A stretch of 64,000 nt of DNA from Nitrospirota bacterium (GTDB lineage: Bacteria; Nitrospirota; Nitrospiria; JACQBZ01), in the NCBI GenBank assembly GCA_016200255.1, contig JACQFA010000008.1, positions 561 through 64,560 of the forward strand, in the 5' to 3' direction. Position 1 is the stretch's first letter, and each line of letters starts with the position of its first letter. Made by a program: the position numbers and the translations under genes. Below the pieces are notes generated by a model. That model saw only the letters and a program-made list of their open reading frames with translations. It was not told the DNA's origin and searched no databases. Positions 1 to 62,827 of the stretch are shown here, piece after piece.

Positions 1-1329
1 GTCGACTTCAATTACATCCGGCGCCTTGGCGTTATATTTCAAGGCCCGATCGGCCGCAATGACGTTGAAGCTCTTCACCGGCGCATCCGCCGGGCAGACC
101 GACTTCGCCGAGGCCGGAATCTCATCCCGCCCCGGAAGCTTCTTCAGGTCGGGAACTTCCTTATCCAACACCCGGAAGATCCCCCAGCTCCCCTCCGAGA
201 AGTGGGAGGGACGGCCGTCAAAGTGAAGATAATCCCCGGCCATCTGCTGAGGCCCTCCGGCCTTGCTCACCAGGTCGTATCGCTCCGCGATCCCGACATG
301 GTACGCATTCCTGAAATCGGAATGCTCGGCATACCGCTCCGTCCTAAAGGCATGACCCGAAAGGTGCCAGGTATGGCTCTCGTTCATCATCACATGCAAC
401 AGACGAAAGACCACCGTGTCGCCCAGGTAGGCCCGCAGTAGCGGTGTTCCCGGATCCTGCCCATGGACCTTGGTCGAAAAAACCAGGGACGGATCCGGAT
501 TGAACTTGAGTCGTTTTGCGATCGACTCCGCGCGGAAGAAGAATCCTCCACCGGTCGTGTGAGTCCCGCCGTTGAGCATCGGAACCGAGACCAGGTCCAG
601 ATCATAGGGCATCTGGAAGAACAGCGCCTGACCGGCGTCGATGGCCGCCTTGACCGTCTGACCCGGAGGATTTCCGGCCGTGACGACCTGCGCGGTATAC
701 GGCACCGTGTCATTAAGATATTGAACCATCTCGCGGAAACTGCCGTTCACGCCGTAGCCGACCGGTTCCGAGGTATGGATATCGGCGATCGGGCCGCTCC
801 GGATTTCCTTACCGGTCTTCGGATCATGATAGGTCGAACCATACGGCTCGACGATGTTGCCGCCCACCGCGCCATGCGGCCAGGTGGTGCCGCCGAGCGC
901 ATGGTCGTGCCAGAAGACGGTCCCCAGATCGACGTCCACCCAGTAGCGGTACCGGACGAACTCGACCGAGGCGATCTCGCCTTTCTTATGCGCATGCTTC
1001 AAGGGCTCGCCGAAAATCAGCGTATCGCCTTTTATATCCTTGATCCAGCGAACCTCGGAGGTCTTCACCTCGTGCATCCCGATCATGATGTCGGTGCCGA
1101 CATGGTACTTCGTCGCGCCTTCCGCCATCTGGATCTTGATCGAGGCCGCGCCGGCCTTGACATCCTCCGTCAGATGGGAGTTCATCGGCACCGGAAGCCC
1201 CGCGTGCTTGTCCTTTTTGAACTGCGTGAACGGCCGCACCGACATTTCATAGGCAAAACTGGTGATCACGCCGTCGGAGGCGTTGTTGTCGAACTGCATG
1301 AAGTGCGGGTGGATATTGATCTTCGACAT
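1..1329 (-). CDS. Multicopper-oxidase-like protein, N-terminal 443 codons (the C-terminus lies beyond the window's 5' edge). It begins MSKINIHPHFMQFDN and overlaps the 3' end of the upstream MCO ORF by 64 nt in another frame.
   Basis: The minus-strand frame was translated by hand from 1329 to position 1 and is open and protein-like throughout. It carries His-rich copper-site-like motifs (FWHDHALGGTTWPHG and HTWHLSGH, the latter resembling the MCO HxxHxH motif). No Shine-Dalgarno sequence precedes any candidate start. The plus-strand ORFs called over this region (26..226, 202..441, 463..1386) are antisense artefacts. Confidence 0.6.
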   Translation of the reverse strand, partial: MSKINIHPHFMQFDNNASDGVITSFAYEMSVRPFTQFKKDKHAGLPVPMNSHLTEDVKAGAASIKIQMAEGATKYHVGTDIMIGMHEVKTSEVRWIKDIKGDTLIFGEPLKHAHKKGEIASVEFVRYRYWVDVDLGTVFWHDHALGGTTWPHGAVGGNIVEPYGSTYHDPKTGKEIRSGPIADIHTSEPVGYGVNGSFREMVQYLNDTVPYTAQVVTAGNPPGQTVKAAIDAGQALFFQMPYDLDLVSVPMLNGGTHTTGGGFFFRAESIAKRLKFNPDPSLVFSTKVHGQDPGTPLLRAYLGDTVVFRLLHVMMNESHTWHLSGHAFRTERYAEHSDFRNAYHVGIAERYDLVSKAGGPQQMAGDYLHFDGRPSHFSEGSWGIFRVLDKEVPDLKKLPGRDEIPASAKSVCPADAPVKSFNVIAADRALKYNAKAPDVIEVD

Positions 1330-3779
1330 CTGGAAGTTCGTGGTGTCTTGGCCCGAACCGCGGCCTCCTCCTCATGCAGAACGTAGATTGTCCCGTGCTG
1401 ATCCACCACGGCCTTCTCTTTCCCGACCGCGTTATTCATCGTGATCGGCGTTTCAATGAAGTGGATCGTGTACTGCTTGCGACCCGCGTTGGCCGGACAG
1501 AGACTCCATTTTCCCTGCTCGCCCGGCCGTGCCGGCTGGTTCGTTTCACCGCCTGCCACACCGAGACCGCCCGGTTCATCTCCAATGGCCCCCGTGTTCT
1601 TATCCATATGGATCGGCTCTAACCACGGCGCCGGCCCATGATGCCGCGCAAACGGAATCCGTTTTCCAAAGTGCGGCTTGAAGAACGGATTGGCCAGCTT
1701 TCCGGTCTTTGCATCGAACAGGATCGGAGGCCGTTTTCCCGGCATCGGCGATTTATATTTCGGGTTGTCGAATGCCTGAGTCGCTTCCGGCTCACCCATC
1801 GCCTTGTTCCCTTCCCAAGCCCAGTCCCAGACCGTCGAATCATACGCCTCGATCTGGCCCTTCTCATCCGCGGTGCCGCCCGGCTGACCGGACGGAGGAA
1901 GCATCATCTTGACCCAGTCCTTGATCGAAACATCCGGAATCGGCTTCGAGAAATCCGTCTTGTCCGCGGTGATGTTCCATTTCTTGTCGTACCAGTCCAT
2001 CGTCTTTCCGACCAACTGGTCCGAGGTCACGGCCGCCTTCATCCGGCCCTTCCGGTCCGGAAGTTCCTGCAACGACGGCATGGTATCGGTGCTGCCGAAG
2101 GGATAGTTTCCGGTCTGTAGCGTGTTATAACCGCGCCCGTAAGACCACATTCCGGCGACATAGTGATGCGCCACGTGGCAGTGGAAAAGATATTCGGACG
2201 CGACCTGCTGGCAGAGGCCCCAGCCGCATTCGGTCTGAAGATCCAGAACTTCCGACGGACCGATCACTTCGACATCCACCCGGTCGGAGGTCGTACGGAC
2301 CTCCGGGTACTTCACCGGGCCGTTGCTGGCCGCGGTCATAATGAAGTCCGCCTTGCCGTCGGCCTTCGGCTGACGGAGCCAGCGGATCGACCCGCCATGA
2401 GGATGATGGGAATGGAACACCTCCCCGCCGCCATGAATCAGCCGCCATTTGGCCGGATCGCCCAGATAGCCCCTCGGAATCGGGGTCGGGACATCGCCGA
2501 AGGTGTAGGAGCTGTAGGCCATCGATTCGTCTTCAAAATGGAAATATTTCTCTTGTAGCGCGAGGTTATTGATCCCGAACGGCTCGCTGCGATAGTTGAG
2601 CGCCCGTGCGGAAGGCCGGTAGGCGTCGGTGTTCGGATCGCGCTGCGGGATCATATCGCCCTGGCGGTTCAGCGGGCGGAAGGATTCATCCCCGATCTCA
2701 TGATAGAAGATGACATACTCCCGGAAGTCGGGGAGGACCTTCGGGTGATCCGTGATCATCATCTGCCAGCCGCTCTTCGCCTCTTTCCCGCTGATCGGAT
2801 CGAGATAACGCGACCCCATTGGTTCGACGATGAAGGCTCCGATCATTCCCAGACTCGCCTGCTCCCGGCCGACATGGCTGTGAAGCATGTGGGAGCCTTC
2901 CTGCTCGTCGGGCCGGATGTACCATTCGAAGGTCTGGCTTTTCCCGGGCTTCACGGTCGAATCCGAATTCGCCGCGGTAGCCGCAAGACCGGTCGACTTG
3001 ATGATCATGCTGGATCCATGGATATGAAGGCCGACATCTTCGTCCTTCAGTTTGTTCTGAAGGGTGATCACCACACAATCCCCCTGGTTTCCGCGGAGGA
3101 CGATCGGCTGGATCATGTCGGTCTGAAGACCGGTGGTAACGGCCCCCTGATTATATCCCGACGCTTTACGGGCCTCCCGGTTGGCTTTCTCTTCATCCCG
3201 GACCTTCTGGAGGTTTTCGGTCAGGACATACATGTAGCCGGGATGGTAATCCAGCCACTGATTCAACGTGATTTCCACATTGACCGCCGAGACATCGTAC
3301 TGTTTCACCGGGGCGCCGCTTGGACAATGACCGCCAGCCGTCACCGACTCGCCCGCGGGCGCGGGACCGAGAAAGTAACTCTTGTCCATCTGCTGCATCA
3401 TGCTCATGCTGCTGAAGGGCCCCTGACCACCGGTGTGGGCCGCGTGCTCGTTGCCCCCCTTGGCGATCTCGTCCATCAGTTTCTGCATCGCCGCGTTCAC
3501 CTGGTCCTCATGGCCGGCGCGGCCTTCTTCCACATCTTCCCGTGCAATCTGTTCCTTGAATTTTTCCTTCCATTCCGGCGGCGTCTGCGAATCGGCAGAA
3601 GCCACCTGCAGATGCGGATGATCCTCCCCCGCCGTTGCCGTCGGAAGCAAAAGACCGCCCCCGGCAAGCGATGTCAGAAAGGATACGGCGATGAGCGATG
3701 CCGCTTTCCTAAACCATTCGAAGTACGATCTCTTCATGACTGACCTCCTCCTTATATTCCCGTGATAGGGTTGGTTCAC
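1266..3779 (-). CDS. Secreted three-domain multicopper oxidase with a roughly 250-aa N-terminal extension. The likely true start is the ATG at 3737 (MKRSYFEW...), preceded by AAGGAGGAGG.
   Basis: All four MCO copper motifs occur in canonical order: HIHG, HMLHSH, HSHHPHGG and HCHVAHHYVAGMW. There is an N-terminal hydrophobic signal peptide. The last roughly 25 residues (RTSRCRRSISTRTSCSSTTTPPTA) are compositionally non-protein-like, which is suspicious. Confidence 0.8.
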   Translation of the reverse strand: MNQPYHGNIRRRSVMKRSYFEWFRKAASLIAVSFLTSLAGGGLLLPTATAGEDHPHLQVASADSQTPPEWKEKFKEQIAREDVEEGRAGHEDQVNAAMQKLMDEIAKGGNEHAAHTGGQGPFSSMSMMQQMDKSYFLGPAPAGESVTAGGHCPSGAPVKQYDVSAVNVEITLNQWLDYHPGYMYVLTENLQKVRDEEKANREARKASGYNQGAVTTGLQTDMIQPIVLRGNQGDCVVITLQNKLKDEDVGLHIHGSSMIIKSTGLAATAANSDSTVKPGKSQTFEWYIRPDEQEGSHMLHSHVGREQASLGMIGAFIVEPMGSRYLDPISGKEAKSGWQMMITDHPKVLPDFREYVIFYHEIGDESFRPLNRQGDMIPQRDPNTDAYRPSARALNYRSEPFGINNLALQEKYFHFEDESMAYSSYTFGDVPTPIPRGYLGDPAKWRLIHGGGEVFHSHHPHGGSIRWLRQPKADGKADFIMTAASNGPVKYPEVRTTSDRVDVEVIGPSEVLDLQTECGWGLCQQVASEYLFHCHVAHHYVAGMWSYGRGYNTLQTGNYPFGSTDTMPSLQELPDRKGRMKAAVTSDQLVGKTMDWYDKKWNITADKTDFSKPIPDVSIKDWVKMMLPPSGQPGGTADEKGQIEAYDSTVWDWAWEGNKAMGEPEATQAFDNPKYKSPMPGKRPPILFDAKTGKLANPFFKPHFGKRIPFARHHGPAPWLEPIHMDKNTGAIGDEPGGLGVAGGETNQPARPGEQGKWSLCPANAGRKQYTIHFIETPITMNNAVGKEKAVVDQHGTIYVLHEEEAAVRAKTPRTSRCRRSISTRTSCSSTTTPPTA

Positions 3780-3799
3780 TTCCTCTTATTCTTTTTCAA

Positions 3800-4135
3800 T
3801 TACTTCAGCACGGCGGACATCAGATCTTCCACCGTGGCATTTTTGATTCTCGTCTTGTCGTAAATCGTGAGTTGATTCGCTTCCAGGGTGCAATGGACAA
3901 CCCGCGCGTGGTACCGCGAAACCAGTTCCTGCAAGAGCGCCTGCTCCTCCGCGCCGGACGTTTCTCTGAAATCGACCACCACGTCCGGCTTGAACGTTTC
4001 GCATTTGTCGATCGCCGCCTTCACGTCCGCCACCTTTTCAATCACCAGATGCTCCTTCTGATCGTCCAACAGGCTGACGATCCCGGTCCCGAACAACGAT
4101 TGAGTCGTAATTAATAAGAGCCGCCGCTTTTCCAC
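3800..4135 (-). CDS. Small hypothetical protein with a degenerate CheY/receiver-like fold, co-oriented between the response regulator and the MCO genes.
   Basis: 111-aa ORF whose stop lies 21 nt upstream of the MCO ORF. It shows an alternating hydrophobic beta / alpha pattern with a KPDVVVDF segment resembling the receiver phospho-Asp strand, but lacks the N-terminal acidic pair. Confidence 0.35.
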   Translation of the reverse strand: MEKRRLLLITTQSLFGTGIVSLLDDQKEHLVIEKVADVKAAIDKCETFKPDVVVDFRETSGAEEQALLQELVSRYHARVVHCTLEANQLTIYDKTRIKNATVEDLMSAVLK

Positions 4136-4282
4136 AACATCCCCTCATGGAGCCTGTCAGCCTGCAACTTACTCTGAATCAAAAGCGCTGTCTATTCCGC
4201 GGATGGTCTATTTTGAATGGAAAAAGGAGGTATTCGGATATAGCTCTTTTGGACTATACGGAAACCGGAAAACCGGGATTCA

Positions 4283-4960
4283 TTAATTTTTATGGAGGGG
4301 CTTTTGATTCACGAGGCCTTGTTCGTGGGCGTAGATGGCGGCCTGTATGCGGTTGTTCATATGGAGCTTTTTGAGGATATTCTTGAGATGGATCTTGACC
4401 GTGTGCTCGGAAATGCAAAGCGTGCCGGCGATCTCCTTATTGCTGCCGCCCTTGGCCAGGTGTTGGAGAATTTCATGTTCGCGTTTTGTCAGGAGGTTCA
4501 ACTTGGATTCCGCAGGCGCATCCATTTTGTGGGCGACGCTGCTGAATTCGTTAAGCAGCTTTGAGGCCATCGCGTGGGGAATCACGGCCTCGCCCTCGGC
4601 CAGAAGATGGATGGCCTTGATCAGTTGGTCGGGTTCCACATTTTTAAGCAGATAGCCACGAGCCCCGGCCTTGATGGCCGAGAACAGATCCTCGTCCTCC
4701 TCCGAGACGGTCAGCATAATAATGCGGGCATCGGGAAAAATTTCCCGGATGGCCCGGGTGGCTTGGATTCCGTTCAGGCGGGGCATATTGACGTCCATCA
4801 GGATGACGTCGGGCTTGAGGGTTTGGGCTAGCCGAAGGCCCTCTTCGCCGTCTTTGGCCTCCCCCACCACCTCGATGCCTTTCTGCTGCTTCAGAAGACT
4901 GGCGAGACCTTTCCGAAACAGCGTATGGTCATCCACGATGAGAACTTTGATCGGAGCCAT
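4283..4960 (-). CDS. NarL/FixJ-family response regulator (receiver domain plus LuxR-type helix-turn-helix).
   Basis: KVLIVDDH...PDVILMDVNMP receiver motifs and a C-terminal LTKREHEILQHLAKGGSNKEIAGTLCISEHTVKIHLKNIL LuxR HTH. Confidence 0.9.
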   Translation of the reverse strand: MAPIKVLIVDDHTLFRKGLASLLKQQKGIEVVGEAKDGEEGLRLAQTLKPDVILMDVNMPRLNGIQATRAIREIFPDARIIMLTVSEEDEDLFSAIKAGARGYLLKNVEPDQLIKAIHLLAEGEAVIPHAMASKLLNEFSSVAHKMDAPAESKLNLLTKREHEILQHLAKGGSNKEIAGTLCISEHTVKIHLKNILKKLHMNNRIQAAIYAHEQGLVNQKPLHKN

Positions 4961-4963
4961 CGA

Positions 4964-6175
4964 TTATTCCTCGGCCGCGTCGAGCGGAACGGCGACGCGT
5001 ACCGTCATCCCGTCGCCCAGCCGGGACTCCAGGTCGAGTTTTCCTTTCAGGCCGGCGATCCGCTCCCGCATGATCTCCAGTCCCATGCGCGGCTGCTTCT
5101 GTTTCTGAAGCGTCTGCGGATCAAAGCCGCGGCCGTCATCCTGGACAGAAACCTCAAGAACACCCCGGGTGACGGATAGGGAGATCTTGACCTGCCTCGC
5201 CGAGGCATGCTTTCGCACGTTGGAGAGAGCCTCTTGAATGATCCGGAATAACTGGACCTGAACCCTGGATGTCAGCACCAGACCGTCGGAGGAGTTGTGA
5301 AGGTGAGCCTGAATTCCGGTCCGTTGGCTGAAATCCTTCGCATAGTCGGACAAGACAGCAAGGAAGTCCTTATCTTCCTTGAATTTCGTCCTGAAATCCA
5401 CGAGAAGTTCCCGTACATCTTCATACGTATCGTTGATCACCTGACGGATCTGGCCTAATTCCGAAAGGGCCTGCGACGGAGCGTTCTTTTTCAACAGGTC
5501 TTCCAGCTTTTTGGTTTCCAGATTCAGATACGCCAGGTTCTGCGCGATGCCGTCATGGATCTCCCGTGCGATCAGGTTCCGCTCTTCCATAACAGCCAGT
5601 TCGCGGGCCCCCGCATAGAGCTGGGCGTTTTCAATCGCCACGCCGATCTGCCGTCCCACGAGAACAAGAAACTCCTGGTCCATGGTCTTAAACGCATGGG
5701 GACGTTTCGCATAAATCGTCATGATCCCCAGCACGCGGTCCCTCGATTTCAGCGGAATGCTGACGACCGACCCGAACGGTTCGTCCCGGCAGGCGGATCG
5801 GGTCAGGCGAATTTCGGCCGACAGGTCGGGCGATGAGATCAGTTCCCCGCTCTGGGCCACCCGGCCGCAGAGGCAGTCGCCGACCGGAATGCAGTTCTCC
5901 GCATAGACAAAACCCTGGGAGATCCCGCGGCTCGAGATCAGCTTCAACTGATGGGTCTTCGATTCAAGGATATGGACCGAGCCGATATCCGCTCCGGTCA
6001 GTTCCAAAAGTTGGTCCAGCGTTCCGCCGAGCGCCTTGTCTAGACGGCCCGTCTGGCTGATGACGGCCGACAGCTGGCTGAGCGTCGAAAATTGTGCGTT
6101 TCTCCGATGGAGAATCTCGGCCGGATCGGTCCGAGGGGTAGATTTCAAGGGCTTCACGATACGTCCCTTTCCCAT
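4964..6175 (-). CDS. Sensor histidine kinase with an N-terminal GAF domain and a NarX/DegS-type (HisKA_3) kinase core.
   Basis: The H-box EIHDGIAQNLAYLNLE and a C-terminal HATPase_c (DDGRGFD, GLGL-like segment). Its stop overlaps the response-regulator start (TAA-TCG-ATG). Confidence 0.85.
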   Translation of the reverse strand: MGKGRIVKPLKSTPRTDPAEILHRRNAQFSTLSQLSAVISQTGRLDKALGGTLDQLLELTGADIGSVHILESKTHQLKLISSRGISQGFVYAENCIPVGDCLCGRVAQSGELISSPDLSAEIRLTRSACRDEPFGSVVSIPLKSRDRVLGIMTIYAKRPHAFKTMDQEFLVLVGRQIGVAIENAQLYAGARELAVMEERNLIAREIHDGIAQNLAYLNLETKKLEDLLKKNAPSQALSELGQIRQVINDTYEDVRELLVDFRTKFKEDKDFLAVLSDYAKDFSQRTGIQAHLHNSSDGLVLTSRVQVQLFRIIQEALSNVRKHASARQVKISLSVTRGVLEVSVQDDGRGFDPQTLQKQKQPRMGLEIMRERIAGLKGKLDLESRLGDGMTVRVAVPLDAAEE

Positions 6176-6235
6176 TGATGATTTCCCATTGTACCGGGAT
6201 TTTCGAAAAGAATCAAAAACCCATTGTGGGATCGA

Positions 6236-7270
6236 TTACGGCCGACCGGATTGGTGGACGATTTCGACGACGGCCGCGACATTTTCGACCGGCGTTTCGG
6301 GCAGTATGCCGTGGCCGAGGTTGAAGATATGACCGGGCCGGTTCGCCGCGCGCTTGAGGATGTCCTCCACACGGCGTTCGATCTCCTGGACCGCCCCGAA
6401 CAGTACGACCGGATCGAGATTCCCCTGGATGGCAACATCGTGGCCCAACCGCTTCCAGGCGTCATCTAAATTGATCCGCCAATCCACACCGATCACATCC
6501 CCGCCGGCCTCGCGCATCGATTCCAGAAAACCGGACGTCCCCGTCCCGAAATGAATCACCGGCACGTTTTCCTTTTTCAAGCCGTCCATCATCCGTCGTG
6601 AATAGGGCATGACATATTCGCGATAATCCCCGGGGCTCAGACTGCCGACCCAGGAATCGAAGATCTGGACCGCCTGCGCCCCGGCCCGTATCTGGGCGCG
6701 AAGATAGGAGGCCATCATATCGGCCAGCTTGGTCATCAGCTCCTTCCAGAGTTCCGGTGAATGGAGCATCATCTGTTTGGTCCGGATATAATGGTTGGAG
6801 TGGCCGCCCTCGATCATGTAGCTGGCCAGCGTGAAGGGCGCGCCGCAAAACCCGATCAGCGGGACCTTTCCGTTTAATTCACGACGGACGGTCCGGATCG
6901 CCTCCATCACGAACGGCGTCTTTTCGTCCGGCTCGAACGGCTGGAGTGCCTTGACGGCCGCGGCGTCGCGCACCGGATTATGGATCACCGGCCCCTCGCC
7001 CTTTGCAAACTCCAATTGAATTCCCATCGGCTCAAGCGGAAGAAGGATGTCGGCAAAGATGATCGCAGCGTCGAGATCGAAATGTTCGATCGGCTGGAGG
7101 GTGACTTGCGCGGCCAATTCGGGCGTCTTGCAGATCGTCAGTATGGAATGCTTTTTCCGGATTGCCCGGTACTCCTTCATGTACCGCCCGGCCTGGCGCA
7201 TGAACCAGACCGGCGTGCAGTCCGTCTGTTTTCGCTGACAGGCTAAAAGAAATCGATCGCTTCGGCTCAT
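6236..7270 (-). CDS. hemE: Uroporphyrinogen decarboxylase.
   Basis: N-terminal signature PVWFMRQAGRY and typical length (344 aa). Confidence 0.9.
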   Translation of the reverse strand: MSRSDRFLLACQRKQTDCTPVWFMRQAGRYMKEYRAIRKKHSILTICKTPELAAQVTLQPIEHFDLDAAIIFADILLPLEPMGIQLEFAKGEGPVIHNPVRDAAAVKALQPFEPDEKTPFVMEAIRTVRRELNGKVPLIGFCGAPFTLASYMIEGGHSNHYIRTKQMMLHSPELWKELMTKLADMMASYLRAQIRAGAQAVQIFDSWVGSLSPGDYREYVMPYSRRMMDGLKKENVPVIHFGTGTSGFLESMREAGGDVIGVDWRINLDDAWKRLGHDVAIQGNLDPVVLFGAVQEIERRVEDILKRAANRPGHIFNLGHGILPETPVENVAAVVEIVHQSGRP

Positions 7271-7383
7271 TCCGTCATCCCGTGATTAAAAGAGTATTAT
7301 TTTATCAACACATCGTCGAGGTGTCAAATTATTTAACCATCCTACCGATTGACTCCCGACGCCGTGTGTGTTAAATCATAGCC

Positions 7384-8292
7384 ATGACGCGATCATCTCA
7401 AGAGGTTCGAGTCGAGGAGCGTTTCTGGACGCTGGATGAGGCGTTTGGGTATTGCGACCGCTTGGCTGCGGCCCATTATGAAAATTTTCCGGTCGGCTCG
7501 CGGTTCGTTCCGAAAAAACTCCGGCCGTATGTCCACAGCATCTATGCCTTCGCGCGGATCGCGGATGATTTTGCGGACGAGCCGGACACCCTCGACAACC
7601 TCCGCCTGGCTTTTTTGGAAAACTGGGAAGGCCAGCTGCTCCAATGCATCTGGCGGACGCCGCAGCACCCCGTCTTTATCGCGCTGAAAGAAACGATCCG
7701 GAAATTCGATCTGCCCGTCGCGCTGTTTCAGGATCTGCTGATGGCCTTCAAAATGGACGTCACGACGAAGAGGCACGACCGGTTCGAGGATCTTCTTGCC
7801 TACTGCCGAAACTCGGCCAATCCGGTCGGGCGTCTCGTTCTGCTTCTGTTCGGCTATCGTGATCCGGAACTCCATGCGCTTTCGGACTCGATCTGCTCCG
7901 CGCTTCAACTGGCCAATTTCTGGCAGGACGTGGCGGTCGATTACCGGAAAAATCGGATCTATCTTCCCCTTGAGGACATGGCAAAATTCGGCTACCGGGA
8001 AGACGACTTGAAAAACAGCCGCCACAACGAAGCCTTTCGCAACCTGATGCGGCACGAAGTTGCGCGGACGCGGGAAATGTTTCATCGCGGTCATCCTCTC
8101 TGCGACAAGGTCGGCCGTGAACTGCGCTTTGAGCTCCATCTCATCTGGAACGGGGGAATGGCGATTCTGGACCGGGTCGAGCATGCCGACTACAATGTTT
8201 TTATTCATCGCCCCACCCTCGGATTGAAAGACAAGATCTCGATGGTGACGAAGGCCGCGATCGCCCGCTACGGCCGCCAGGGAAAATCATAG
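7384..8292 (+). CDS. hpnC: Squalene/phytoene-synthase-family protein, HpnC-like (hydroxysqualene synthase), first gene of an hpnCDE arrangement.
   Basis: AHYENFPVGSRF ... YAFARIADDFADE aspartate-rich trans-isoprenyl diphosphate synthase head-to-head motifs. It is followed by a paralogue and an amine-oxidase gene. Confidence 0.7.
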   Translation: MTRSSQEVRVEERFWTLDEAFGYCDRLAAAHYENFPVGSRFVPKKLRPYVHSIYAFARIADDFADEPDTLDNLRLAFLENWEGQLLQCIWRTPQHPVFIALKETIRKFDLPVALFQDLLMAFKMDVTTKRHDRFEDLLAYCRNSANPVGRLVLLLFGYRDPELHALSDSICSALQLANFWQDVAVDYRKNRIYLPLEDMAKFGYREDDLKNSRHNEAFRNLMRHEVARTREMFHRGHPLCDKVGRELRFELHLIWNGGMAILDRVEHADYNVFIHRPTLGLKDKISMVTKAAIARYGRQGKS

Positions 8293-8295
8293 GCC

Positions 8296-9144
8296 ATGCC
8301 GCTCCAGACTCCCCGCATGACCCATCGGAAGAGTAACTTCGGAATCTCATTTCTGTTTCTTCCCCGCCGCCAACGGGAGGCGATCGAGCGCGTTTACGCT
8401 TTTTGTCGCGCACTGGACGACGTTTCCGACAGCGCGCTGGGCCCGGAAGAGAAAAAACGGCAGTTGGAATTCTGGCGGAACGAGTTGGACCGTTGCTATG
8501 CCGAAAAGGCGGAACATCCGATCACGGTCGCTCTTCAAGAAACGGTTCAGGAATTTAATCTCACCCGGACCTACTTTGAAGAACTGACGCAGGGGGTCGA
8601 GATGGATTTCACCGTCACCCGATACTCGAGTTTCGTCACTCTTTCCCAGTACTGCTACCGCGTCGCGGGCACCGTCGGACTGATCTGCCTTGAGATCTTC
8701 GGCTGTCCGGGTGAAAAGGACTACGCGGTTGCGCTGGGCATCGCGTTTCAGGTCACGAATATCCTGAGGGACGTCAAGGATGACGCCGGGCATGGACGGA
8801 TCTACCTTCCTCAGGACGATTTCTTGCGTTTCGGCTACAGCGAAAACGAATTATTGAACTCAACCTACAACGACCGGTTTGTGGAATTGATGCGGTTCGA
8901 AGCCGAACGGGCCGGCGATTATTTCCGGCGGGCGGCGGACCTGATCAAGCCAGAACACCGACGGCAACTCATCGCCTCCGAGATCATGGCCGCGATCTAC
9001 TCGACCCTCCTTCGGGAGATTAAGATTGCCCGGTACAACGTCTTTGATCAACGCGTCCGACTCTCCAAACCGCGCAAAGTCGCACTGGCTTTAAAAACCG
9101 CGCTGATGAACCGGATCGGCATCGGCCGGGCGATTTCGATATGA
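8296..9144 (+). CDS. hpnD: Squalene/phytoene-synthase-family protein, HpnD-like (presqualene diphosphate synthase).
   Basis: YAFCRALDDVSD and DAGHGRIYLPQDD motifs, paralogous to the upstream ORF. The HpnC versus HpnD assignment rests on gene order only. Confidence 0.65.
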   Translation: MPLQTPRMTHRKSNFGISFLFLPRRQREAIERVYAFCRALDDVSDSALGPEEKKRQLEFWRNELDRCYAEKAEHPITVALQETVQEFNLTRTYFEELTQGVEMDFTVTRYSSFVTLSQYCYRVAGTVGLICLEIFGCPGEKDYAVALGIAFQVTNILRDVKDDAGHGRIYLPQDDFLRFGYSENELLNSTYNDRFVELMRFEAERAGDYFRRAADLIKPEHRRQLIASEIMAAIYSTLLREIKIARYNVFDQRVRLSKPRKVALALKTALMNRIGIGRAISI

Positions 9145-10481
9145 CGCAGGTCCTGATCATCGGCGGGGGATTTGCCGGACTGTCGGCCGGCGTCGCCCTT
9201 GCGGATCAAGGCGCGAGGGTCACCGTGATCGAACAGCGTCGTATCCTGGGCGGCCGCGCCTATTCGGTCGAAGACGGAACGACGGGCGAGCTGATCGACA
9301 ACGGACAGCATGCGCTTCTCGGCGCCTTTCATGAAACCCAAAAATTTTTAAAAACAATCGGCACGGACGGCCTGATCCGGTATCAGGACCGCTTCCGGAT
9401 GGTCCTGGCCGAACCCGGCGGCGGCCGTATGACGTTGAAGGCCGCATCGCTTCCCGCCCCTTTTCATCTGGCGGCCGGCGTGGCTTTGTGCCGCGGCCTC
9501 TCGATGACGGACCGCTTTCATCTTCTCCGTGCCGGCCTCTCGATGCTGATGACCCGATCCCTTCCGGAAACGATGACCCTCAAGGACTGGCTGGACTCCC
9601 TCGGCCAGCCGGCATCGCTTCGCCAGCGATGGTGGTATCCCCTCTCGATCTCGGCCCTCAACGAACTGCCCCATCGCGCCTCGGCCGATCTCTTCTTGTG
9701 CGTATTAAAGCAGGCCTACTTCGGATCAGTCCGGGACTCTTCGTTCGGAATCATGACGGTCGGGCTGGGCGATCTCTACACCGAACAGGCCCGGCAATTC
9801 ATCGAAGCCGGAGGCGGGCAGGTCTTATGCAACACGACCGCGTTTCAACTGGCCTTCTCAGACCGGCAACTCGATGCCGTCGTGCTGCGAAACAGCGGTT
9901 CGATGACGGCCGATTACATGATCAGCGCCGTGCCGCATCATGTTTTACGGAAATTATTGCCGCCTGAACTGATGAAACAAGGCGCGCCGTTTGAAGCGCT
10001 GACGCACCTGGCCGAATCGCCCATGGTCTCGATCCATCTCTGGTTCGACCGGCCGGTGATGGACGAGGAGTTCATCGGACTGATCGACTCGCCGATTCAG
10101 TGGGTCTTCGACAAATCCCGTCTCTGGAAAGAGGGCGAAACCCAGGCCGGCGCGCTGGCCTGCATCACGAGCGGCGCCTACGACTTGATTGATCGCTCAA
10201 AGGAAGATCTAATTGCCCTCGCTCAGAATGAATTGGTCCGTTTTTTCCCGGAAGTTTCAAAGGCCAGACTCATTCATTCCCGGTTGATCAAGGAACGGAA
10301 TGCGACCTACTCCTGCACGCCCGAGGCCGAGCGATGGCGGCCGAAACAGGAAACGCCGTATCGAAATTTCTTCCTGGCCGGCGACTGGACCCGCACCGGC
10401 CTTCCCGCGACGATCGAGGGCGCCGTCACCAGCGGCCACCGCTGCGCTGGATTGATACTACGGGATAAGAGCGGCAATTAA
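9141..10481 (+). CDS. hpnE: FAD-dependent amine-oxidase-family hydroxysqualene dehydroxylase.
   Basis: N-terminal VLIIGGGFAGLSAG dinucleotide-binding motif. It lies immediately downstream of the hpnC/hpnD pair with a 4-nt overlap. Confidence 0.75.
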   Translation: MTQVLIIGGGFAGLSAGVALADQGARVTVIEQRRILGGRAYSVEDGTTGELIDNGQHALLGAFHETQKFLKTIGTDGLIRYQDRFRMVLAEPGGGRMTLKAASLPAPFHLAAGVALCRGLSMTDRFHLLRAGLSMLMTRSLPETMTLKDWLDSLGQPASLRQRWWYPLSISALNELPHRASADLFLCVLKQAYFGSVRDSSFGIMTVGLGDLYTEQARQFIEAGGGQVLCNTTAFQLAFSDRQLDAVVLRNSGSMTADYMISAVPHHVLRKLLPPELMKQGAPFEALTHLAESPMVSIHLWFDRPVMDEEFIGLIDSPIQWVFDKSRLWKEGETQAGALACITSGAYDLIDRSKEDLIALAQNELVRFFPEVSKARLIHSRLIKERNATYSCTPEAERWRPKQETPYRNFFLAGDWTRTGLPATIEGAVTSGHRCAGLILRDKSGN

Positions 10482-10659
10482 GGACTTCCTCAACGGAAAA
10501 TGTGTCTTATAAATAGATTGTGCCGGATGTCACAGAAAACATGAGACGACTCCTGTTATCGTTGTCGTCTCGATCGATAACGATCCGCCCCGGAATCTTC
10601 ATATTGATTCCCCGATGAAAAAAGCCTAGAATGATAATTAGCATTCACTGGAGATAGCA

Positions 10660-13600
10660 TTGATGGTCCGGACACGATTTGTACTTTTCATGTCGATTGC
10701 GCTTCTTCCTCTCCTGTTCTCGGGATGCCCCAGCAGCGGAGGAGGCGGATCATCCTCTTCCTCTTCATCGGATACGACACCGCCGACCGTCAGTTCCACC
10801 CAGCCGGCCGCCGATGCAACCGGAATCGCCCTTAACACGACCATCACCGCCACCTTCTCGGAGGCGATGGACGCCACAACGCTCACCGCCGCGACCTTTA
10901 TCCTGATGGCTGGCGGAACTGCGGTCACCGGAACGGTGAGCTACACCGGGACCACCGCCACCTTCACGCCGTCCGCAGCGCTGGCCTCGAACACACTCTT
11001 GACCGCAAAAATTACGACCGGGGCGCAAGACCTGGCCCACAATCCTCTCGCGGCCGATTTCAGCTGGCAGTTTACGACCGCGCCGGACACCACGCCGCCG
11101 ACCGTTATCTCAACCAATCCAGCGAACAACGCCGTCGACGTGCCATTGAACAGTTCGATCACCGCCACCTTCTCAGAACCGATGGACCACACAACCCTTT
11201 CGAATACCACCTTCATCGTAAGTACCGGGGGAGTCCCAATCGCCGGAAGGATCGGTTACAGCAGCACCAGCGTCACCTTTACGCCAACATCGAGTCTGAT
11301 CAATGTCACGGACTACACCGCAACGATCACGACCGGCGTAAAGGATCTGGCCGGAAATTCTCTCGCCGCCGACTTCGCCTGGTCGTTTACCAGCGGAGGC
11401 GCCATCGACAACATACCGCCCACGGTTATCTCCACGACGCCCGCCACTCATGCCACGAATGTTCCCTTTAATACAACGATCAGCGCCACATTTTCGGAAG
11501 CAATGGATCCTTCCTCGATAACAACGGACAGCTTCAAGGTCAGCACGGGCGGGGGCTTTATCACCGGAACGGTCAACTACAGCGGTACGACCGCCACCTT
11601 CACGCCAGATACGCCCCTCGCCTCGGCCGCCACGTATACCGCATCAATAAAAACCTTCGCAAAGGACCTGGCCGGAAATGCCCTGGCGGCCGACTACAAC
11701 TGGCAGTTCGGCATGCTCACAAAACCCACGCTCTGCGTTATACCGGGGGGCGGGGGTGTAAATAACTGTTATGCCACGATCAACGGCGCGCTGGCCGCGG
11801 CCAAAACCGGTGACATTGTCGGCGTCGCGGCCGGAACCTACCCCGAGAGCGTCGTCGCAAACAGTTTTAATTATAATGTTTTAATCACCCAGACCGTGAC
11901 ACTGGAAGGCGGCTGGGATATCAGCTTTAATGTCATGGACCCGGTGGCAAACGTCACCACGATCACACCGTTAAACCCTTATGCGGTTGTTGCAGTTGAG
12001 GGCGTGCCTGGGAGTACCAGCACGGTGGCCCCGACCATTGACGGTTTTACGATCACCGGCGCGGTCAGCACCAATCACGGAGGCGGTCTGCGGATCCAGA
12101 ACAGCGACGCGATCGTGCAAAATAATATCATCACAAATAATACGGCCTATTTCCTCGGAGGCGGCGCTTGGGTACAGAACGGCGCGCCCCAGTTCAAGAA
12201 CAATCAGATCACGAATAATACCGTCACCCCCAGCGGAAACGCTTATGGCGGCGGGATCGAACTGGAGAATACAACGGCCGCACTGGTCGGCAACACGATC
12301 AGCGGCAACACCGTGGCCGCCACAACCGGATATGGCGGCGGCGTATACGTTGACGGCGGAGGGCCGGTAAAACTGATCGGCAACACCATTGACGGAAATA
12401 CCGGAAGCCACGGATCGGGCTACGGCGGGGGCGTCAGCATTCGAGCCGCCGCTGCAACGCTGAACAGCAATATCATAGATGGGAACTCCGGGGGCGGAAG
12501 CGGCGCCGTCAGCTATGGCGGCGGGATCTATGTAGACAGTTCATCTTCATTCGTACTAAATAGCAACACGATCACCGGCAACGTCGTGGGCGCGGAAAGC
12601 ACCGGCGTCACGCCCTCTTACGGCGGCGGCGTGTATATCACCACGAGTCAGGGATCGCTGTCCGGCAACACGATCGCCAATAATATAGCCGCCCCGAGCG
12701 GCGCTTCTTCCGAGACGGGATGGGGAGGCGGATTGGCAATCGTCGGCAGCACGGTCTTTTCGCACAATGACAAGCTCACGGGCAACTCCGTCCGACTCGG
12801 CGACGGGTGCGGGCTCTATGCCGGCACAAGCACGATCAAATTCAATGCCGTAGCGATACAGGACAACAACTGCCTGGGGCTGTATCTTTCCGCCACCCCC
12901 TATACCCTGAACGACGCCTTGGTAACCGGGAATACGACGGGCGGGCTGAAAGCGGTTACAATCAGTGCAACCGCCAGCCCGGGCGTCTTGATCAACAACA
13001 CCTTCGTGGGAAACAATAGCGGAGAAGGGATTAATACCGACTCGGCTCTCACGATTGTGAACAACATCATCATGGGTCATGCGACCGGCGTTAAAGTTGG
13101 GGCAACGGCGCCGGTCAGCAGGAACAATGATTTCTACAACAACACGACGGACACCGTCGGTTTTTCAAAAGATGCCAGCGACATCATCCCAAGCGACCCT
13201 CTGTTCATCTCCATCTCCGATTACCATCTCACGTCATCTTCGCCGCTGATCGATGCCGGCACGCACGGGCCGATTCCGGATGCCACTTCACCGGGGCAGA
13301 ACGCGAACCTTCCCGACACCGACATGGACGGCCAGTCGCGTGCCATGATCGGCACCAGCCATCTGTATAAGGTCGATATCGGCGCGGATGAGTTCGCAGG
13401 CAATACCCCCAGACCCCAGCGGATCGTCAACCTGGACGGCGGCGGAGCGGACCTAACGATCATCGGCCCCGGAGGCGTGGACCCGAATGCGTCGGCCAAC
13501 GACTGGATCGGGTATGCCGTTCTGGGAACCGATATCAACGGCGACGGCAAAGCCGACTTAACGTTCTCGGCGGAGGATTGGGTCATCGACTTCAACAATC

Positions 13601-14793
13601 CGCCGCATTCGACCGGCCGTCTGTTCGGACTTTCTAATACGGGCAGCCGCAAGACCGGAACGCTCGATCTTTCCAGCACCTCGGCCGACCTGATCGTGGA
13701 TTCCAGGATGAATCTCCAGCATCTTGGATCGGCCCTGACGGGCGGCGATCTCAACGGCGATGGCCATTCCGACCTGATCGCCGGTTCATATCAGGACGAC
13801 GGGGGCGGTGGCGGGACGGTCTGGCCGACCGTGTTCGCCTTCTGGGGCGGTTCCTCCCTGACCGGAACCCGTCTGTTGGACGGCGTCCTTCCTTCGGATA
13901 ATCACGCCGATTTCGCGCTTCGCGCGCCGGGCCAGGACTTCTTTGCCTTCTCGTCCAAAAACGCCTTGACGACCGGCGACCTCAACGGCGACGGCATCGC
14001 CGACCTGATCGTCGGCGATGGGCTGGCGGACAACCCCTCCCCTGCAACGGCCGACACCGGGGCGATTTTTGTGATCTTCGGGGGATCCGGTCTGACGGGT
14101 CTGCATGATCTGGGGGCGACGCCGGCGGATTACACGCTTTATGGAGCCGCGGCCGCCGACAAACTCCAATCGGTCGCCGTGGGACTGGTCGATTCCGATG
14201 CGCAGGCGGACCTCGTGGCAAGGACGGACACCACCGCCTATGTCTTTCTGGGACCGATCACCGGAACACCGCCGATCACGGCCACCACCGCCTCGGCCGA
14301 TCTCACCATCACCGGTCTTTCGGCCGGAGGCGTCGCCGTGATGGACATAACGGGGGACAACAAGGGCGACCTCATCCTCGGTTCGGGGAATATCATCTAC
14401 ATCCTTCCCGGTCCATTGGCAAAAGGCAGCTTTCCTGTCACAAGCGCACCGGGCTTGATCACCTTGACCGGCATCGCATCGGATGCGGTTTTTTCCATCG
14501 GGAATGTGGTCGGCAGCTCGAACCCGGACCTGATCATCGGCTCGCCCTCGCTCAAGCGGGTTTTCGTCATTGCCGGGGGAATGCCGCTTTCCGGAACCGT
14601 CGATCTGGCTGATGCTTCGGCTACCTTCGTAGAAAGCGCCGTGCTAAATAAGCTGGGGTACGACGTTACGTCGGGCGATCTCGATAACGACAGCCGTCCC
14701 GACCTGATCGTCAGCACCTGGCAACAGAATGTGACCTCTCATCCCGCCAATTTCCAGGATGCCGGACTGGTTTATGTGATCTACGGCAAATGA
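10660..14793 (+). CDS. Giant cell-surface lipoprotein: three tandem Ig-like (SbsA/Big-type) domains, a right-handed parallel beta-helix region and a C-terminal FG-GAP/VCBS repeat region.
   Basis: Lipobox LLFSGC followed by a Gly/Ser linker. Three roughly 105-aa repeats each begin TPPTV...ATFSE.MD. Periodic NNxITNN and YGGG(V/I) turns are typical of PbH1 repeats. Multiple GDLNGDG...DL integrin-alpha-type calcium-loop repeats occur toward the C-terminus. The likely start is the ATG at 10663. Confidence 0.8.
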   Translation: MMVRTRFVLFMSIALLPLLFSGCPSSGGGGSSSSSSSDTTPPTVSSTQPAADATGIALNTTITATFSEAMDATTLTAATFILMAGGTAVTGTVSYTGTTATFTPSAALASNTLLTAKITTGAQDLAHNPLAADFSWQFTTAPDTTPPTVISTNPANNAVDVPLNSSITATFSEPMDHTTLSNTTFIVSTGGVPIAGRIGYSSTSVTFTPTSSLINVTDYTATITTGVKDLAGNSLAADFAWSFTSGGAIDNIPPTVISTTPATHATNVPFNTTISATFSEAMDPSSITTDSFKVSTGGGFITGTVNYSGTTATFTPDTPLASAATYTASIKTFAKDLAGNALAADYNWQFGMLTKPTLCVIPGGGGVNNCYATINGALAAAKTGDIVGVAAGTYPESVVANSFNYNVLITQTVTLEGGWDISFNVMDPVANVTTITPLNPYAVVAVEGVPGSTSTVAPTIDGFTITGAVSTNHGGGLRIQNSDAIVQNNIITNNTAYFLGGGAWVQNGAPQFKNNQITNNTVTPSGNAYGGGIELENTTAALVGNTISGNTVAATTGYGGGVYVDGGGPVKLIGNTIDGNTGSHGSGYGGGVSIRAAAATLNSNIIDGNSGGGSGAVSYGGGIYVDSSSSFVLNSNTITGNVVGAESTGVTPSYGGGVYITTSQGSLSGNTIANNIAAPSGASSETGWGGGLAIVGSTVFSHNDKLTGNSVRLGDGCGLYAGTSTIKFNAVAIQDNNCLGLYLSATPYTLNDALVTGNTTGGLKAVTISATASPGVLINNTFVGNNSGEGINTDSALTIVNNIIMGHATGVKVGATAPVSRNNDFYNNTTDTVGFSKDASDIIPSDPLFISISDYHLTSSSPLIDAGTHGPIPDATSPGQNANLPDTDMDGQSRAMIGTSHLYKVDIGADEFAGNTPRPQRIVNLDGGGADLTIIGPGGVDPNASANDWIGYAVLGTDINGDGKADLTFSAEDWVIDFNNPPHSTGRLFGLSNTGSRKTGTLDLSSTSADLIVDSRMNLQHLGSALTGGDLNGDGHSDLIAGSYQDDGGGGGTVWPTVFAFWGGSSLTGTRLLDGVLPSDNHADFALRAPGQDFFAFSSKNALTTGDLNGDGIADLIVGDGLADNPSPATADTGAIFVIFGGSGLTGLHDLGATPADYTLYGAAAADKLQSVAVGLVDSDAQADLVARTDTTAYVFLGPITGTPPITATTASADLTITGLSAGGVAVMDITGDNKGDLILGSGNIIYILPGPLAKGSFPVTSAPGLITLTGIASDAVFSIGNVVGSSNPDLIIGSPSLKRVFVIAGGMPLSGTVDLADASATFVESAVLNKLGYDVTSGDLDNDSRPDLIVSTWQQNVTSHPANFQDAGLVYVIYGK
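10777..11710 (+). repeat. Three intragenic tandem repeats of about 315 nt each, encoding the Ig-like domains of the giant lipoprotein.
   Basis: TPPTV(S/I)ST.PA ... ITATFSE(A/P)MD ... GT(V/I).Y..T..TFTP ... KDLAGN.LAAD recurs three times in the translated ORF. Confidence 0.7.
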
Positions 14794-16187: not shown

Positions 16188-16215
16188 CAAGTCGGCGCGG
16201 ATGCCTTAATCTATA

Positions 16216-16235
16216 TGTAGAACAATTGTTCTACA
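16216..16235 (+). promoter_or_regulatory. Perfect 20-bp palindrome TGTAGAACAATTGTTCTACA, the putative autoregulatory operator/promoter of the toxin-antitoxin operon.
   Basis: The sequence is self-complementary. It is centred about 32 nt upstream of the antitoxin GTG start and immediately upstream of AGGAG. Confidence 0.6.
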
Positions 16236-16257
16236 ATTATATAGAAGGAGAGCGCCC

Positions 16258-16527
16258 GTGAAGTTCGTTGCCGTAAGGGAACTACAGATCAATTCTTCCA
16301 GGATTCTGGACAAAGTCAAGAAGGGGGAAGACGTCGTTTTAACCCGATTAGGCAAACCGGAAGCGGCCCTGATTCATCTCACGGAGGACGAGCTCGATGA
16401 ATTCCTGGTGCTCCGTCATCCCACCCTGATGAAAGAACTTGAAAGCGCCTACGAGGAGTTCCGGAAGAAGGGAGGCATTACCCAAAAAGAGATGAAAGAA
16501 AGACTCCGTCGCCGTGGAAAACGTTGA
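16258..16527 (+). CDS. Phd/YefM-family type II antitoxin.
   Basis: VAVRELQ...SRILDKVKKGEDVVLTRLGKPEAALI N-terminal Phd/YefM fold motif. It overlaps the downstream toxin by 14 nt. Confidence 0.8.
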   Translation: MKFVAVRELQINSSRILDKVKKGEDVVLTRLGKPEAALIHLTEDELDEFLVLRHPTLMKELESAYEEFRKKGGITQKEMKERLRRRGKR

Positions 16528-16822
16528 CCTGATCTACGCCCCGCGCGCCCAACGCGATCTGCTGGATCTGCCCAAAAAGATAGTCGATCAAATCCTAAAC
16601 GACCACGACCTCCTGAAAACCCGCCCCTGGCCTAACACCAAAGTCAAAAAACTAAAAGGACATCCTTACCGGGAGCTGAAGACCGGAGATTATCGGTCTC
16701 TGTTCGTTGTTGAATCAAACACCGTTGTCTTTCTCCGCATCGTGAACCGGAAAGACCTCGAAACCGCCGTGAAGCGAATCGATCTCAGAACGCTCTGGCT
16801 GTGGTTGAGGGATAAAAGTTAA
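16514..16822 (+). CDS. RelE/ParE-family type II toxin.
   Basis: YAPRAQRDLLDLP ... LKGHPYRELKTGDYRSLFVV ... VVFLRIVNRKD. Small, basic, and translationally coupled to the antitoxin. Confidence 0.8.
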   Translation: MENVDLIYAPRAQRDLLDLPKKIVDQILNDHDLLKTRPWPNTKVKKLKGHPYRELKTGDYRSLFVVESNTVVFLRIVNRKDLETAVKRIDLRTLWLWLRDKS

Positions 16823-17046
16823 CACAGATACCGCTCCCTTGTTTCAAAAACCTCGTCATGGTCTCATGAATCCGGAAATTGATTTTTAAAAGGTTTCAGC
16901 GTACCCTCATTGGGAGGTCAAAAACAAATGTTTAATCCCAAGGCAGGAATGTGGTTTCTTTAGGGAATAGATATCCTGTTAAGTTCCGATGCTATCACTT
17001 TTGCGTTCGGGTTTGTGATGGCGATACAGAGGAATAAGAGACGAGC

Positions 17047-17844
17047 TTGAATATGGAAACTGTTCGTGTGAACTCAGTCGAGGAGTTTGCTTCCCGAGTG
17101 AGGATTTTTCGTAATAATTGGGATAAGGAAGAGCTGTGGTTTAGAGGTGAAGACTCCTCACGATACCGCAACCCATTACGTCCAAGCATCTACCGGCCAC
17201 CCCGACCTGCGATAGAACATGAGGCTCGGGAAAATGAGGACGAAACTCGGATCGAGTTCAGCCGGCGCGGGCACTCGCTCGTTATCGAGAGAACGCCAGA
17301 AAACGAACTGGATTGGTATATCCTCATGAGACACAATGAGGTACCTACTCGCCTATTGGACTGGACCGAAGCATCTCTGATTGCTCTTTTCTTTGCGGTG
17401 CGGGACCGCGGTAGGGCGAATTCCGATAACAGGACTGAAAGTGCTGCAGTTTGGGTGCTCGATCCTGAGTGGCTCAACAAGAAAGTTATTGGCAAGTATG
17501 AGTTTGTATTACCAAGCGACCCAATCATTAATAAATATCTCCCTGAACCAAGGAAAAGAAAGCCAAGGGGCTTGCTTCCGATCGCGATCCTTCCACGTTA
17601 CCCGATCCGTCAAATGCTGTCGCAAAGGAGCACGTTTACAATTCAGGGAGCTCCTAATGGTTTTGATTTAATAAGATCCCGACGGGGAGAGAGGCGGATT
17701 GCAAAGATCGTAGTTCGGAAGTCCAGCTTCGGCGATATACTTAATGATCTCTCTAGCTGCGGCATTGACGAAGCAACGCTCTTCCCGACCTTGACGGGTC
17801 TGGGCAAGGAAGTGACAGCACTTTACTTGAATTATTCTAAATAA
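17047..17844 (+). CDS. FRG-domain protein.
   Basis: Hallmark EELWFRGE motif near the N-terminus with surrounding conserved hydrophobic positions. It sits in an AT-rich islet. Confidence 0.6.
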   Translation: MNMETVRVNSVEEFASRVRIFRNNWDKEELWFRGEDSSRYRNPLRPSIYRPPRPAIEHEARENEDETRIEFSRRGHSLVIERTPENELDWYILMRHNEVPTRLLDWTEASLIALFFAVRDRGRANSDNRTESAAVWVLDPEWLNKKVIGKYEFVLPSDPIINKYLPEPRKRKPRGLLPIAILPRYPIRQMLSQRSTFTIQGAPNGFDLIRSRRGERRIAKIVVRKSSFGDILNDLSSCGIDEATLFPTLTGLGKEVTALYLNYSK

Positions 17845-18218
17845 ATTCGATATGTGGCCCCCTTTTACTCGAACGGCCCGCAACACGTTTACCGAAAATA
17901 TCGCACGGTGTTTACTGGTAGGAATGAACGAAAGTTATAAGTGAATCTTTTCTGGTTCCAAAATCAGTTCTTTCTGAGTTTGCCTATTCACAAAGGAAAA
18001 AACCGATGAAAGTCAAAGAATTTGTGGTATCGAAAAAGAACAGGTTTTTGAAACCTCCCTTTGTCAGATAAAAAGTGGGATGTGAACTTCTTCCTGAAGT
18101 CAATAGTTGAAAAAAATCGATATAGGGCGTAGATTACAGGCGAAAATTGTTTATGCAAGGAGGCGAGTGTGGCAAGTTACACAGATCCATTTAACGCTAG
18201 TTAGAAATCACGGTTGCA

Positions 18219-18659: not shown

Positions 18660-18768
18660 TCCCACAAGCAACGGGCAATGCGAAAACGGCTCATTTTCGC
18701 TGGCTCTTAAAGACTGATGCTCCGAAGGAGCAAGATCAGACTGGTAAAAGCTAAAACTATTTTAGAAT

Positions 18769-61533: not shown

Positions 61534-61606
61534 TGCCCCCGGGGTGATTTGAACACCCGGCCAACGGTTTAGGAAACCGCTGCTCTATCCCCTGAGCTAC
61601 GGGGGC
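61534..61606 (-). tRNA. tRNA-Arg, anticodon CCU.
   Basis: 73-nt cloverleaf: acceptor GCCCCCG/CGGGGGC, D-arm GCTC-AGGGGATA-GAGC, anticodon arm GCGGT-TTCCTAA-ACCGT (U33, A37), T-arm GGGTG-TTCAAAT-CACCC, discriminator A. No encoded CCA. Confidence 0.85.
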
Positions 61607-61705
61607 GGTTTCATTTTCTTCGTCTAAAAATGAGGCGCGACGAACCAAAGCTACATTGGATGATACCCTGATCAAGAGTTCGAATCAAGGAGGAAGGTGG
61701 CGATG

Positions 61706-62800: not shown

Positions 62801-62827
62801 CTGTTAATCCACCAGCATTAAAATTTC

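Follow-up and report, generated by a model that had tools for sequence, protein, structure and literature searches.

At the start of a 64,000-nucleotide (nt) stretch of Nitrospirota DNA (GenBank assembly GCA_016200255.1, contig JACQFA010000008.1), which as a whole is called the window, two overlapping open reading frames (ORFs) with the features of multicopper oxidases (MCOs) lie on the minus strand. We are highly confident that both ORFs are pieces of a single exported MnxG-like oxidase gene, and that in this sequence the gene is interrupted by an 85-nt deletion. Homologue alignments across both ORFs place the disrupted multi-cupredoxin MCO gene at positions 1..3737 (minus).

The upstream frame, ORF1, runs from 3779 to 1266 and encodes 837 amino acids (aa) when it is read from a GTG codon, with its TGA stop at 1268-1266. 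The true start is likely ATG 3737 rather than GTG 3779. From this ATG the frame encodes 823 aa, and a ribosome-binding site, AAGGAGGAGG (3738..3760, minus), is found 6 nt upstream of it. An equivalent start, with AAGGAGG and ATG, is present in the closest relative, locus L002 from a groundwater Nitrospirae metagenome-assembled genome (MAG). The N-terminus of the oxidase (MKRSYFEWFRKAASLIAVSFLTSLAGGGLLLPTATA, followed by GE; 3618..3737, minus) has a charged n-region, a hydrophobic core and an A-x-A-like end, and would thus act as an export signal or signal anchor; a homologue from Nitrospina has been described as periplasmic (Lucker 2013, PMC3578206). At the other end, ORF1 runs into a Ser/Thr/Arg-rich tail of 26 residues, TPRTSRCRRSISTRTSCSSTTTPPTA, that is closed by a chance TGA stop (1266..1346, minus). 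This tail is out of frame and has no counterpart in the homologues, none of which matches the terminal sequence KTPRTSRCRRSISTRTSCSSTTTPPTA. When the same bases are read in the other frame, they yield the conserved sequence DTTNFQMSKINIHPHFMQFDNNASDGV.

That other frame, ORF2, is open on the minus strand from 1371, next to a TGA (1374-1372), all the way to position 1. An ATG first occurs in it at 1329 (MSKINIHPHF...), from where 443 codons extend to the window edge and 64 nt overlap with ORF1. A Shine-Dalgarno core was found upstream of none of the 13 in-frame ATG, GTG or TTG codons in the first 150 codons of ORF2, and no signal peptide was found at ORF2. A preliminary description of the window, made from its letters alone, had reported the coordinates and the nonsense-like tail of ORF1, the ATG at 1329 with its overlap and codon count, the lack of a Shine-Dalgarno sequence and the presence of His-cluster motifs in both frames, and all of these proved to be accurate, the positions to the base.

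One gene and its missing 85 nucleotides

We searched a collection of 5.8 billion proteins with the conceptual fusion of ORF1 and ORF2 and obtained 898 homologues. Among the best 120 of these, nearly all were single proteins of 1,606-1,658 aa, covering 96-100% of the fusion at 56-85% identity. They originate from Nitrospiria, Candidatus (Ca.) Manganitrophus, Nitrospira and Nitrospina and are named multicopper oxidase domain proteins. The full-length identity to these ~1,630-aa MCOs of Nitrospirota and Nitrospinota is high, amounting to 76% for Ca. Manganitrophus sp. SA1 and 56-58% for Nitrospira, Nitrospina gracilis and other Nitrospinae, while the closest relative protein (P0136, from L002) is 90.7% identical across the fusion. 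Both frames match one protein family at 83-91% identity, which is far beyond chance. By tblastn, residues 3-783 of an intact homologue (P0001) aligned to window positions 3668-1344 in frame -3, and residues 811-1259 to positions 1347-1 in frame -2.

The same continuity was observed at the level of genomes. A scan of the GTDB representative genomes yielded 37 related loci, and a 120-residue probe centred on the junction aligned unbroken in every one of them whose contig reaches the junction. Thirty related loci contain a single uninterrupted MCO frame, which is at least 1,600 aa long wherever the contig holds the gene whole. The window gene clusters with L001-L006 and L023; its own copy does not form the single uninterrupted ORF of ~1,600-1,660 aa and is disrupted between positions 1348 and 1347. 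The 90%-identity cluster of the closest relative comprises 39 members; among the 15 listed members, identity to the window protein does not exceed 93%, and each one that covers the junction is intact there. In the homologue searches, no homologue was found that starts or ends at the junction or that ends near residue 800. A protein query made of the final 166 aa of ORF1, tail included, retrieved only distant short fragments of at most 66% identity. The preference of the preliminary description for one large MnxG/ceruloplasmin-type oxidase split by a change of frame is hence borne out, as homologues span both ORFs without interruption. Its size estimate of roughly 1300+ aa was too low: the intact protein is ~1,630 aa long, and its C-terminal ~380 codons lie outside the window, past the window start.

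The frame change itself turned out to be of another kind than the -1/+1 slip in an otherwise complete gene that had been proposed. In the relatives that aligned on both sides (L001-L006, L008, L023 and L024), the blastn alignments break between 1348 and 1347. At this point, L001-L006 have exactly 85 nt more than the window, as judged from the subject coordinates, and a protein alignment showed that 29 residues of P0001, NSDLARPLVYRANVYDCVDVILKSEWLDN, are missing in the window between ...EEEAAVRA and DTTNFQMSKINIHPH. We therefore conclude that the lesion is an 85-nt deletion rather than a single-base slip, and the 29 missing codons rule out a simple -1/+1 frameshift. The junction lies at 1347..1348 (minus), where the 85 nt of the relatives (C TCC GAT ... 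GAG GAC AAC) are absent; the window reads GCCAA followed directly by GACACC, whereas the intact form would carry CTCCGATCTGG...GAGGACAAC. Since 85 nt equal 29 codons minus 2 nt, the frame shifts, and the downstream part of the gene (1..1347, minus), with the rest of domain 3 (HPH, HDH) and later domains, is placed in the other frame.

Nine residues of the deleted segment (P, R, Y, D, C, D, E, W, D) are invariant in sets of 67 and 112 homologues. We modelled the N-terminal 1,014 aa of the intact homologue P0114 with AlphaFold (predicted local distance difference test 70, predicted template modelling score 0.73), and in this model the segment forms the strands E794-799 and E802-811, directly before the HxH of the domain. 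According to this model, the 29 lost codons are those of two core β-strands that precede the first HxH of cupredoxin domain 3. Furthermore, the segment matches a stretch, '...PLxxRxNxGDCVxVxLxNxL', found ahead of the first HxH in domains 1 and 5 of the same protein; such a stretch before the first HxH is an arrangement general in MCOs.

The copper motifs show what the break separates. Domain 2, in ORF1, carries the copper ligands HSHHPH (HxxHxH; 2397-2414) and HCHVAHHYVAGM (2148-2183; together 2148..2414, minus), which correspond in P0001 to H427, H430 and H432, and to H504-C505-H506...H510...M515, and are invariant in 112/112 full-length homologues. By motif and homology, HCHVAHHYVAGM would provide the Cys, His and Met of the type-1 site plus two His of the trinuclear cluster. 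The domain-3 motifs are located in ORF2 (HPH at 1303-1311 and HDH at 901-909, minus), and the HxH pairs to which they belong (H823/H825 and H957/H959 of P0001) are likewise invariant in 112/112 homologues. HxxHxH, HCHxxxHxxxxM and two HxH are thus all present in the window, divided between ORF1 and ORF2, with the break at the junction separating the invariant domain-2 ligands from those of domain 3.

Domain 1 contributes two further HxH motifs, LHIHG and LHSHV (HIHG at 3015-3026, HSH at 2871-2882; 2871..3026, minus), which are specific to the clade. The corresponding columns hold His in 50-93 of the 112 homologues (~45-83%), mostly within the Nitrospiria clade, and Bacillus MnxG lacks the domain-1 motifs in an alignment with P0001. 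Conceivably, they mark an extra clade-specific copper site or a vestigial one. ORF1 had been taken for a complete three-domain MCO. The four motif types are indeed there, but the three domains were read off motifs and are no domain-search result, as the only significant Pfam Cu-oxidase match on ORF1 covers residues 202-306 (the families seen for the oxidase are Cu-oxidase_3/_2). Because roughly half of the family lacks the domain-1 HxH and the invariant HxH pairs reside in domain 3 of ORF2, ORF1 is probably not a self-sufficient three-domain MCO. A stand-alone laccase-type enzyme was likewise rejected, as no homologue ends after the HCH domain and the domain-1 HxH is not conserved.

Drawing on homology with Bacillus MnxG and on canonical MCO chemistry, we propose that in the intact enzyme the type-1 copper would be bound in domain 2 (by His, Cys, His and Met), whereas the trinuclear cluster would draw four His from each of the two domains, those of domain 3 being HPH and HDH. 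O2 would be reduced at this cluster, to which substrate electrons would travel from the type-1 copper over the Cys-His bridge. Translation of the window copy from ATG 3737 would give ~797 native residues followed by the 26-residue nonsense tail, and this product would retain the export signal and the domain-2 ligands. The remaining ~830 codons would keep the domain-3 ligands but have no usable start, ribosome-binding site or export signal, and the first domain of that part would be damaged. Because the break falls between the two halves of the O2-reducing site, the locus as written would be unable to encode an active oxidase.

Age and origin of the lesion

Outside the deleted segment, the gene is well preserved. 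All 252 of the 252 remaining invariant positions are kept, and at columns conserved to at least 95% the window gene deviates at 7 of 416 positions, compared to 2-8 in intact relatives. The dN/dS ratio (nonsynonymous to synonymous substitution rates) of the downstream, shifted half relative to L002 is 0.065, against 0.075-0.09 for intact pairs. With no invariant position changed and this low dN/dS, an old pseudogene can be discarded. Since the gene is otherwise pristine, the lesion must be either very recent or non-biological.

We lean slightly towards the deletion being present in the cells. The strongest rival, a serious possibility although not the one we favour, is an assembly or consensus artefact: the organism would have an intact ~1,630-aa gene, and the gap would stem from assembly, polishing or consensus calling, for example from the picking of a minority deletion variant. 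This explanation concerns the origin of the lesion only and is compatible with the single-gene conclusion. The lack of mismatches at the 252 invariant columns and the dN/dS of 0.065 speak for it, and a second lesion in the same 64 kb hints at errors in the record. This second lesion is an in-frame TGA (34935-34937) in fabF (34434-35702, minus), a gene of the cluster plsX-fabH-fabD-fabG-acpP-fabF-rnc, which falls exactly between the Pfam ketoacyl-synt N- and C-terminal domains and yields ORFs of 255 and 166 aa. As fabF is normally essential, this observation bears on the reliability of the record. In addition, two MCOs are among the clusters common to all eight Ca. Manganitrophaceae genomes analysed by Yu et al. 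(Yu 2022, PMC9040806), so that a loss would be unexpected. On the other hand, the loss of 85 nt from a non-repetitive, non-homopolymer sequence is atypical of read-level or polishing errors, and no further split genes were found among the other ~55 ORFs of the window. Moreover, several related MAGs harbour two or three oxidase paralogues from distinct clades (L005 with L011, L006 with L024, and L013 with L023 and L029), so that the loss of one copy could be tolerated.

Several points weigh against our own view. The total lack of other decay suits an assembly artefact as well as a very recent event, and no exact microhomology is present at the breakpoints. Junction-flanking 32- and 50-mers gave no matches in two metagenome DNA scans. 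No independent copy of the junction was found by exact-product look-up of ORF1 from both starts, the histidine kinase and 111-aa neighbour encoded upstream, ClpB, an HD-GYP regulator and AcpP. As to the loss of function, our ligand roles are assigned from motif and homology rather than from coordinates, and the ORF1 product, which keeps HIHG, HSH, HxxHxH and HCH, may have residual activity.

Slippage between direct repeats was considered as a cause of the deletion and rejected, as the near-repeat CCAAC...ACAAC predicts an in-frame loss of 84 nt, whereas 85 nt are missing. In the exact look-up, only the response regulator encoded upstream of the oxidase was retrieved, on a 1,381-nt Logan contig (L039; SRR12113410) that is 99.7% identical to the window and stops 18 nt inside the oxidase gene. 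This contig matches window positions 3720-5100 except for four clustered substitutions (3839, 3845, 3854 and 3856) at the 3′ end of the 111-aa gene. It being near-identical to the window, a nearly identical strain exists in the SRR12113410 sample.

If the deletion is real, a Nitrospiria strain related to Ca. Manganitrophus, a chemolithoautotroph that oxidises manganese, would have recently lost one core MnxG-like oxidase, or would still export a truncated two-domain fragment with four copper motifs and some activity. We regard this further-reaching scenario as unlikely. Should it be true, the strain would be a natural knockout bearing on the dispensability of such oxidases for the metabolism of the lineage, and if the same deletion proved genuine in a Mn-oxidising relative in culture, this would speak modestly for the paralogue being dispensable.

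Very improbable is the alternative that the preliminary description had offered next to the split gene, namely two separate, translationally coupled MCO genes; these would encode an exported oxidase of ~820 aa and one of ~830 aa starting at ATG 1329. The four MCO-type His motifs of ORF1 and the in-frame ATG of ORF2 would fit this idea, and true tandem MCO genes do occur in the relatives L016 and L011. There, however, both tandem copies are complete genes for ~1,620 aa, and the junction coincides with the start or end of no homologue. The ORF1 tail has no homology to the family, the domain at the beginning of ORF2 is short of its first strands, ORF2 also lacks a Shine-Dalgarno sequence and a signal peptide, and nine invariant residues are missing. 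The ATG also lies 64 nt upstream of the ORF1 stop, a distance too large for coupling by termination and reinitiation. Programmed recoding, in which a ribosomal frameshift or bypass would join both frames into a full-length protein, has a negligible probability: the frames do overlap without a ribosome-binding site and an SD-like GAGGAGGAGG is located 34 nt upstream of ATG 1329, but the protein is in one frame in all relatives, a frameshift product would still be short of 29 conserved codons, among them those of an invariant Cys and an invariant Trp, a conserved slippery site is neither needed nor present in the homologues, and the locus shows neither a conserved two-frame organisation nor the full set of codons. 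The locus should be annotated as one disrupted (pseudo)gene, or as a repaired gene if the 85 nt are proven, and neither as two oxidase genes nor as a case of recoding.

Paralogues and neighbouring genes

In some Manganitrophaceae-like genomes, full-length (~1,620-aa) oxidase paralogues are located close together on one strand, at 3302-8160 and 9829-14833 in L016, and at ~10001-14776 and from ~24285 onward in L011. Directly upstream of the window oxidase, positions 3800-6175 (minus) hold the 111-aa gene, which has no Pfam match, a NarL/GerE response regulator and a GAF-HisKA_3 histidine kinase; hemE comes next, beyond these positions. This gene order is syntenic in L002 and L034, and the genes at 3800-6175 may thus be dedicated to the control of the oxidase.

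Otherwise, the window carries the ordinary housekeeping genes of a Nitrospiria-like chromosome with 55.6% GC. Positions 7384-10481 (plus) contain two genes of the squalene/phytoene-synthase family and then a flavin amine-oxidase-type gene, an order that resembles HpnC/HpnD/HpnE of squalene synthesis for hopanoids. Large secreted or surface proteins are represented by a 1,377-aa protein at 10660-14793 (plus), with three Big_5 Ig-like domains, a weak CopC-like match and FG-GAP repeats, and by a second FG-GAP protein at 29718-30872. The region 16210-19788 looks like a small acquired island. Its third-position GC is low (0.51-0.63, compared to ~0.70 elsewhere), and it comprises a Phd/YefM-ParE toxin-antitoxin pair (16210-16822), an FRG-domain protein (17047-17844), a 921-nt gap and a 339-aa ORF without a Pfam match. 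Lastly, the region 61534-63580 may be a mobile-element remnant at a tRNA; it starts with tRNA-Arg(CCT) (61534-61606), which is followed by a 364-aa LAGLIDADG_3 ORF (61706-62800, minus) and a 250-aa ORF with low third-position GC and no Pfam match.

Relation to known manganese oxidases and MCO clades

The closest solved structure is that of MnxG, 9bxa_A, which intact P0001 matched by phmmer with E = 3.3e-103 in five aligned stretches. The same chain was the top Foldseek match of the P0114 model (E = 1.2e-30, 917 aligned columns), ahead of factor V/VIII chains and ceruloplasmin. PDB entry 9bxa is the 'Mnx H340A complex' with MnxG of Bacillus sp. PL-12, and MnxG of strains PL-12 and SG-1 is a Mn(II) oxidase. 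The window gene shares with Bacillus MnxG the multiple cupredoxin domains, with HxxHxH and HCH in the second and HxH pairs in the third, and its domain-2 motifs have HxxH.. and HCH as their aligned counterparts in the Bacillus protein. Sequence similarity, a repeated cupredoxin fold and the ligands for type-1 and trinuclear copper together place it in the MnxG-like superfamily. Nevertheless, the Nitrospiria protein is ~400 aa longer than Bacillus MnxG (~1,630 versus 1,227 aa), the model shows a helical extension at its N-terminus and, between domains 2 and 3, an insert of ~200 residues, and the identity in the structural alignment is only ~19%. No mnxE/mnxF-like genes were recognised beside the window gene, although no comparison with MnxE/F was run and the downstream side lies outside the window; in the relative L001, the genes downstream of the oxidase are CarboxypepD_reg/fn3_3-like.

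Identity with the MnxG equivalog of NCBIfam NF041487 (copper_ox_MnxG), which describes proteobacterial-type proteins of ~1,900 aa, was rejected. Intact homologues reached 99-109 bits and the window fragments 29-46 bits, far below the cut-off of 3,100, so that the window gene has only weak but significant local matches to this family.

By its sequence, the window gene belongs to the known MCO clade of Nitrospina, Nitrospira and Manganitrophaceae, to which it adds only a damaged copy. The periplasmic MCO of Nitrospina and Nitrospira has been described as putative, similar to the Mn oxidase of Bacillus SG-1 and possibly involved in the defence against reactive oxygen species (Lucker 2013, PMC3578206). 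The clade matters, since Nitrospinae 'MnxG' is abundant in metaproteomes of the Pacific Ocean, with Mn(II) oxidase activity unconfirmed for the clade (Saunders 2022, PMC9477243), and since 'two novel MCOs' are common to the Ca. Manganitrophaceae genomes analysed (Yu 2022, PMC9040806). Among the compared relatives of this clade, which are intact at the junction, the window copy alone has the 85-nt deletion and the frame shift. With its two out-of-frame fragments, its nonsense tail and the lack of a ribosome-binding site for the second fragment, it resembles an ordinary small-deletion pseudogene; unlike such a pseudogene, it displays no further decay, which argues for a lesion that is either very young or not real.

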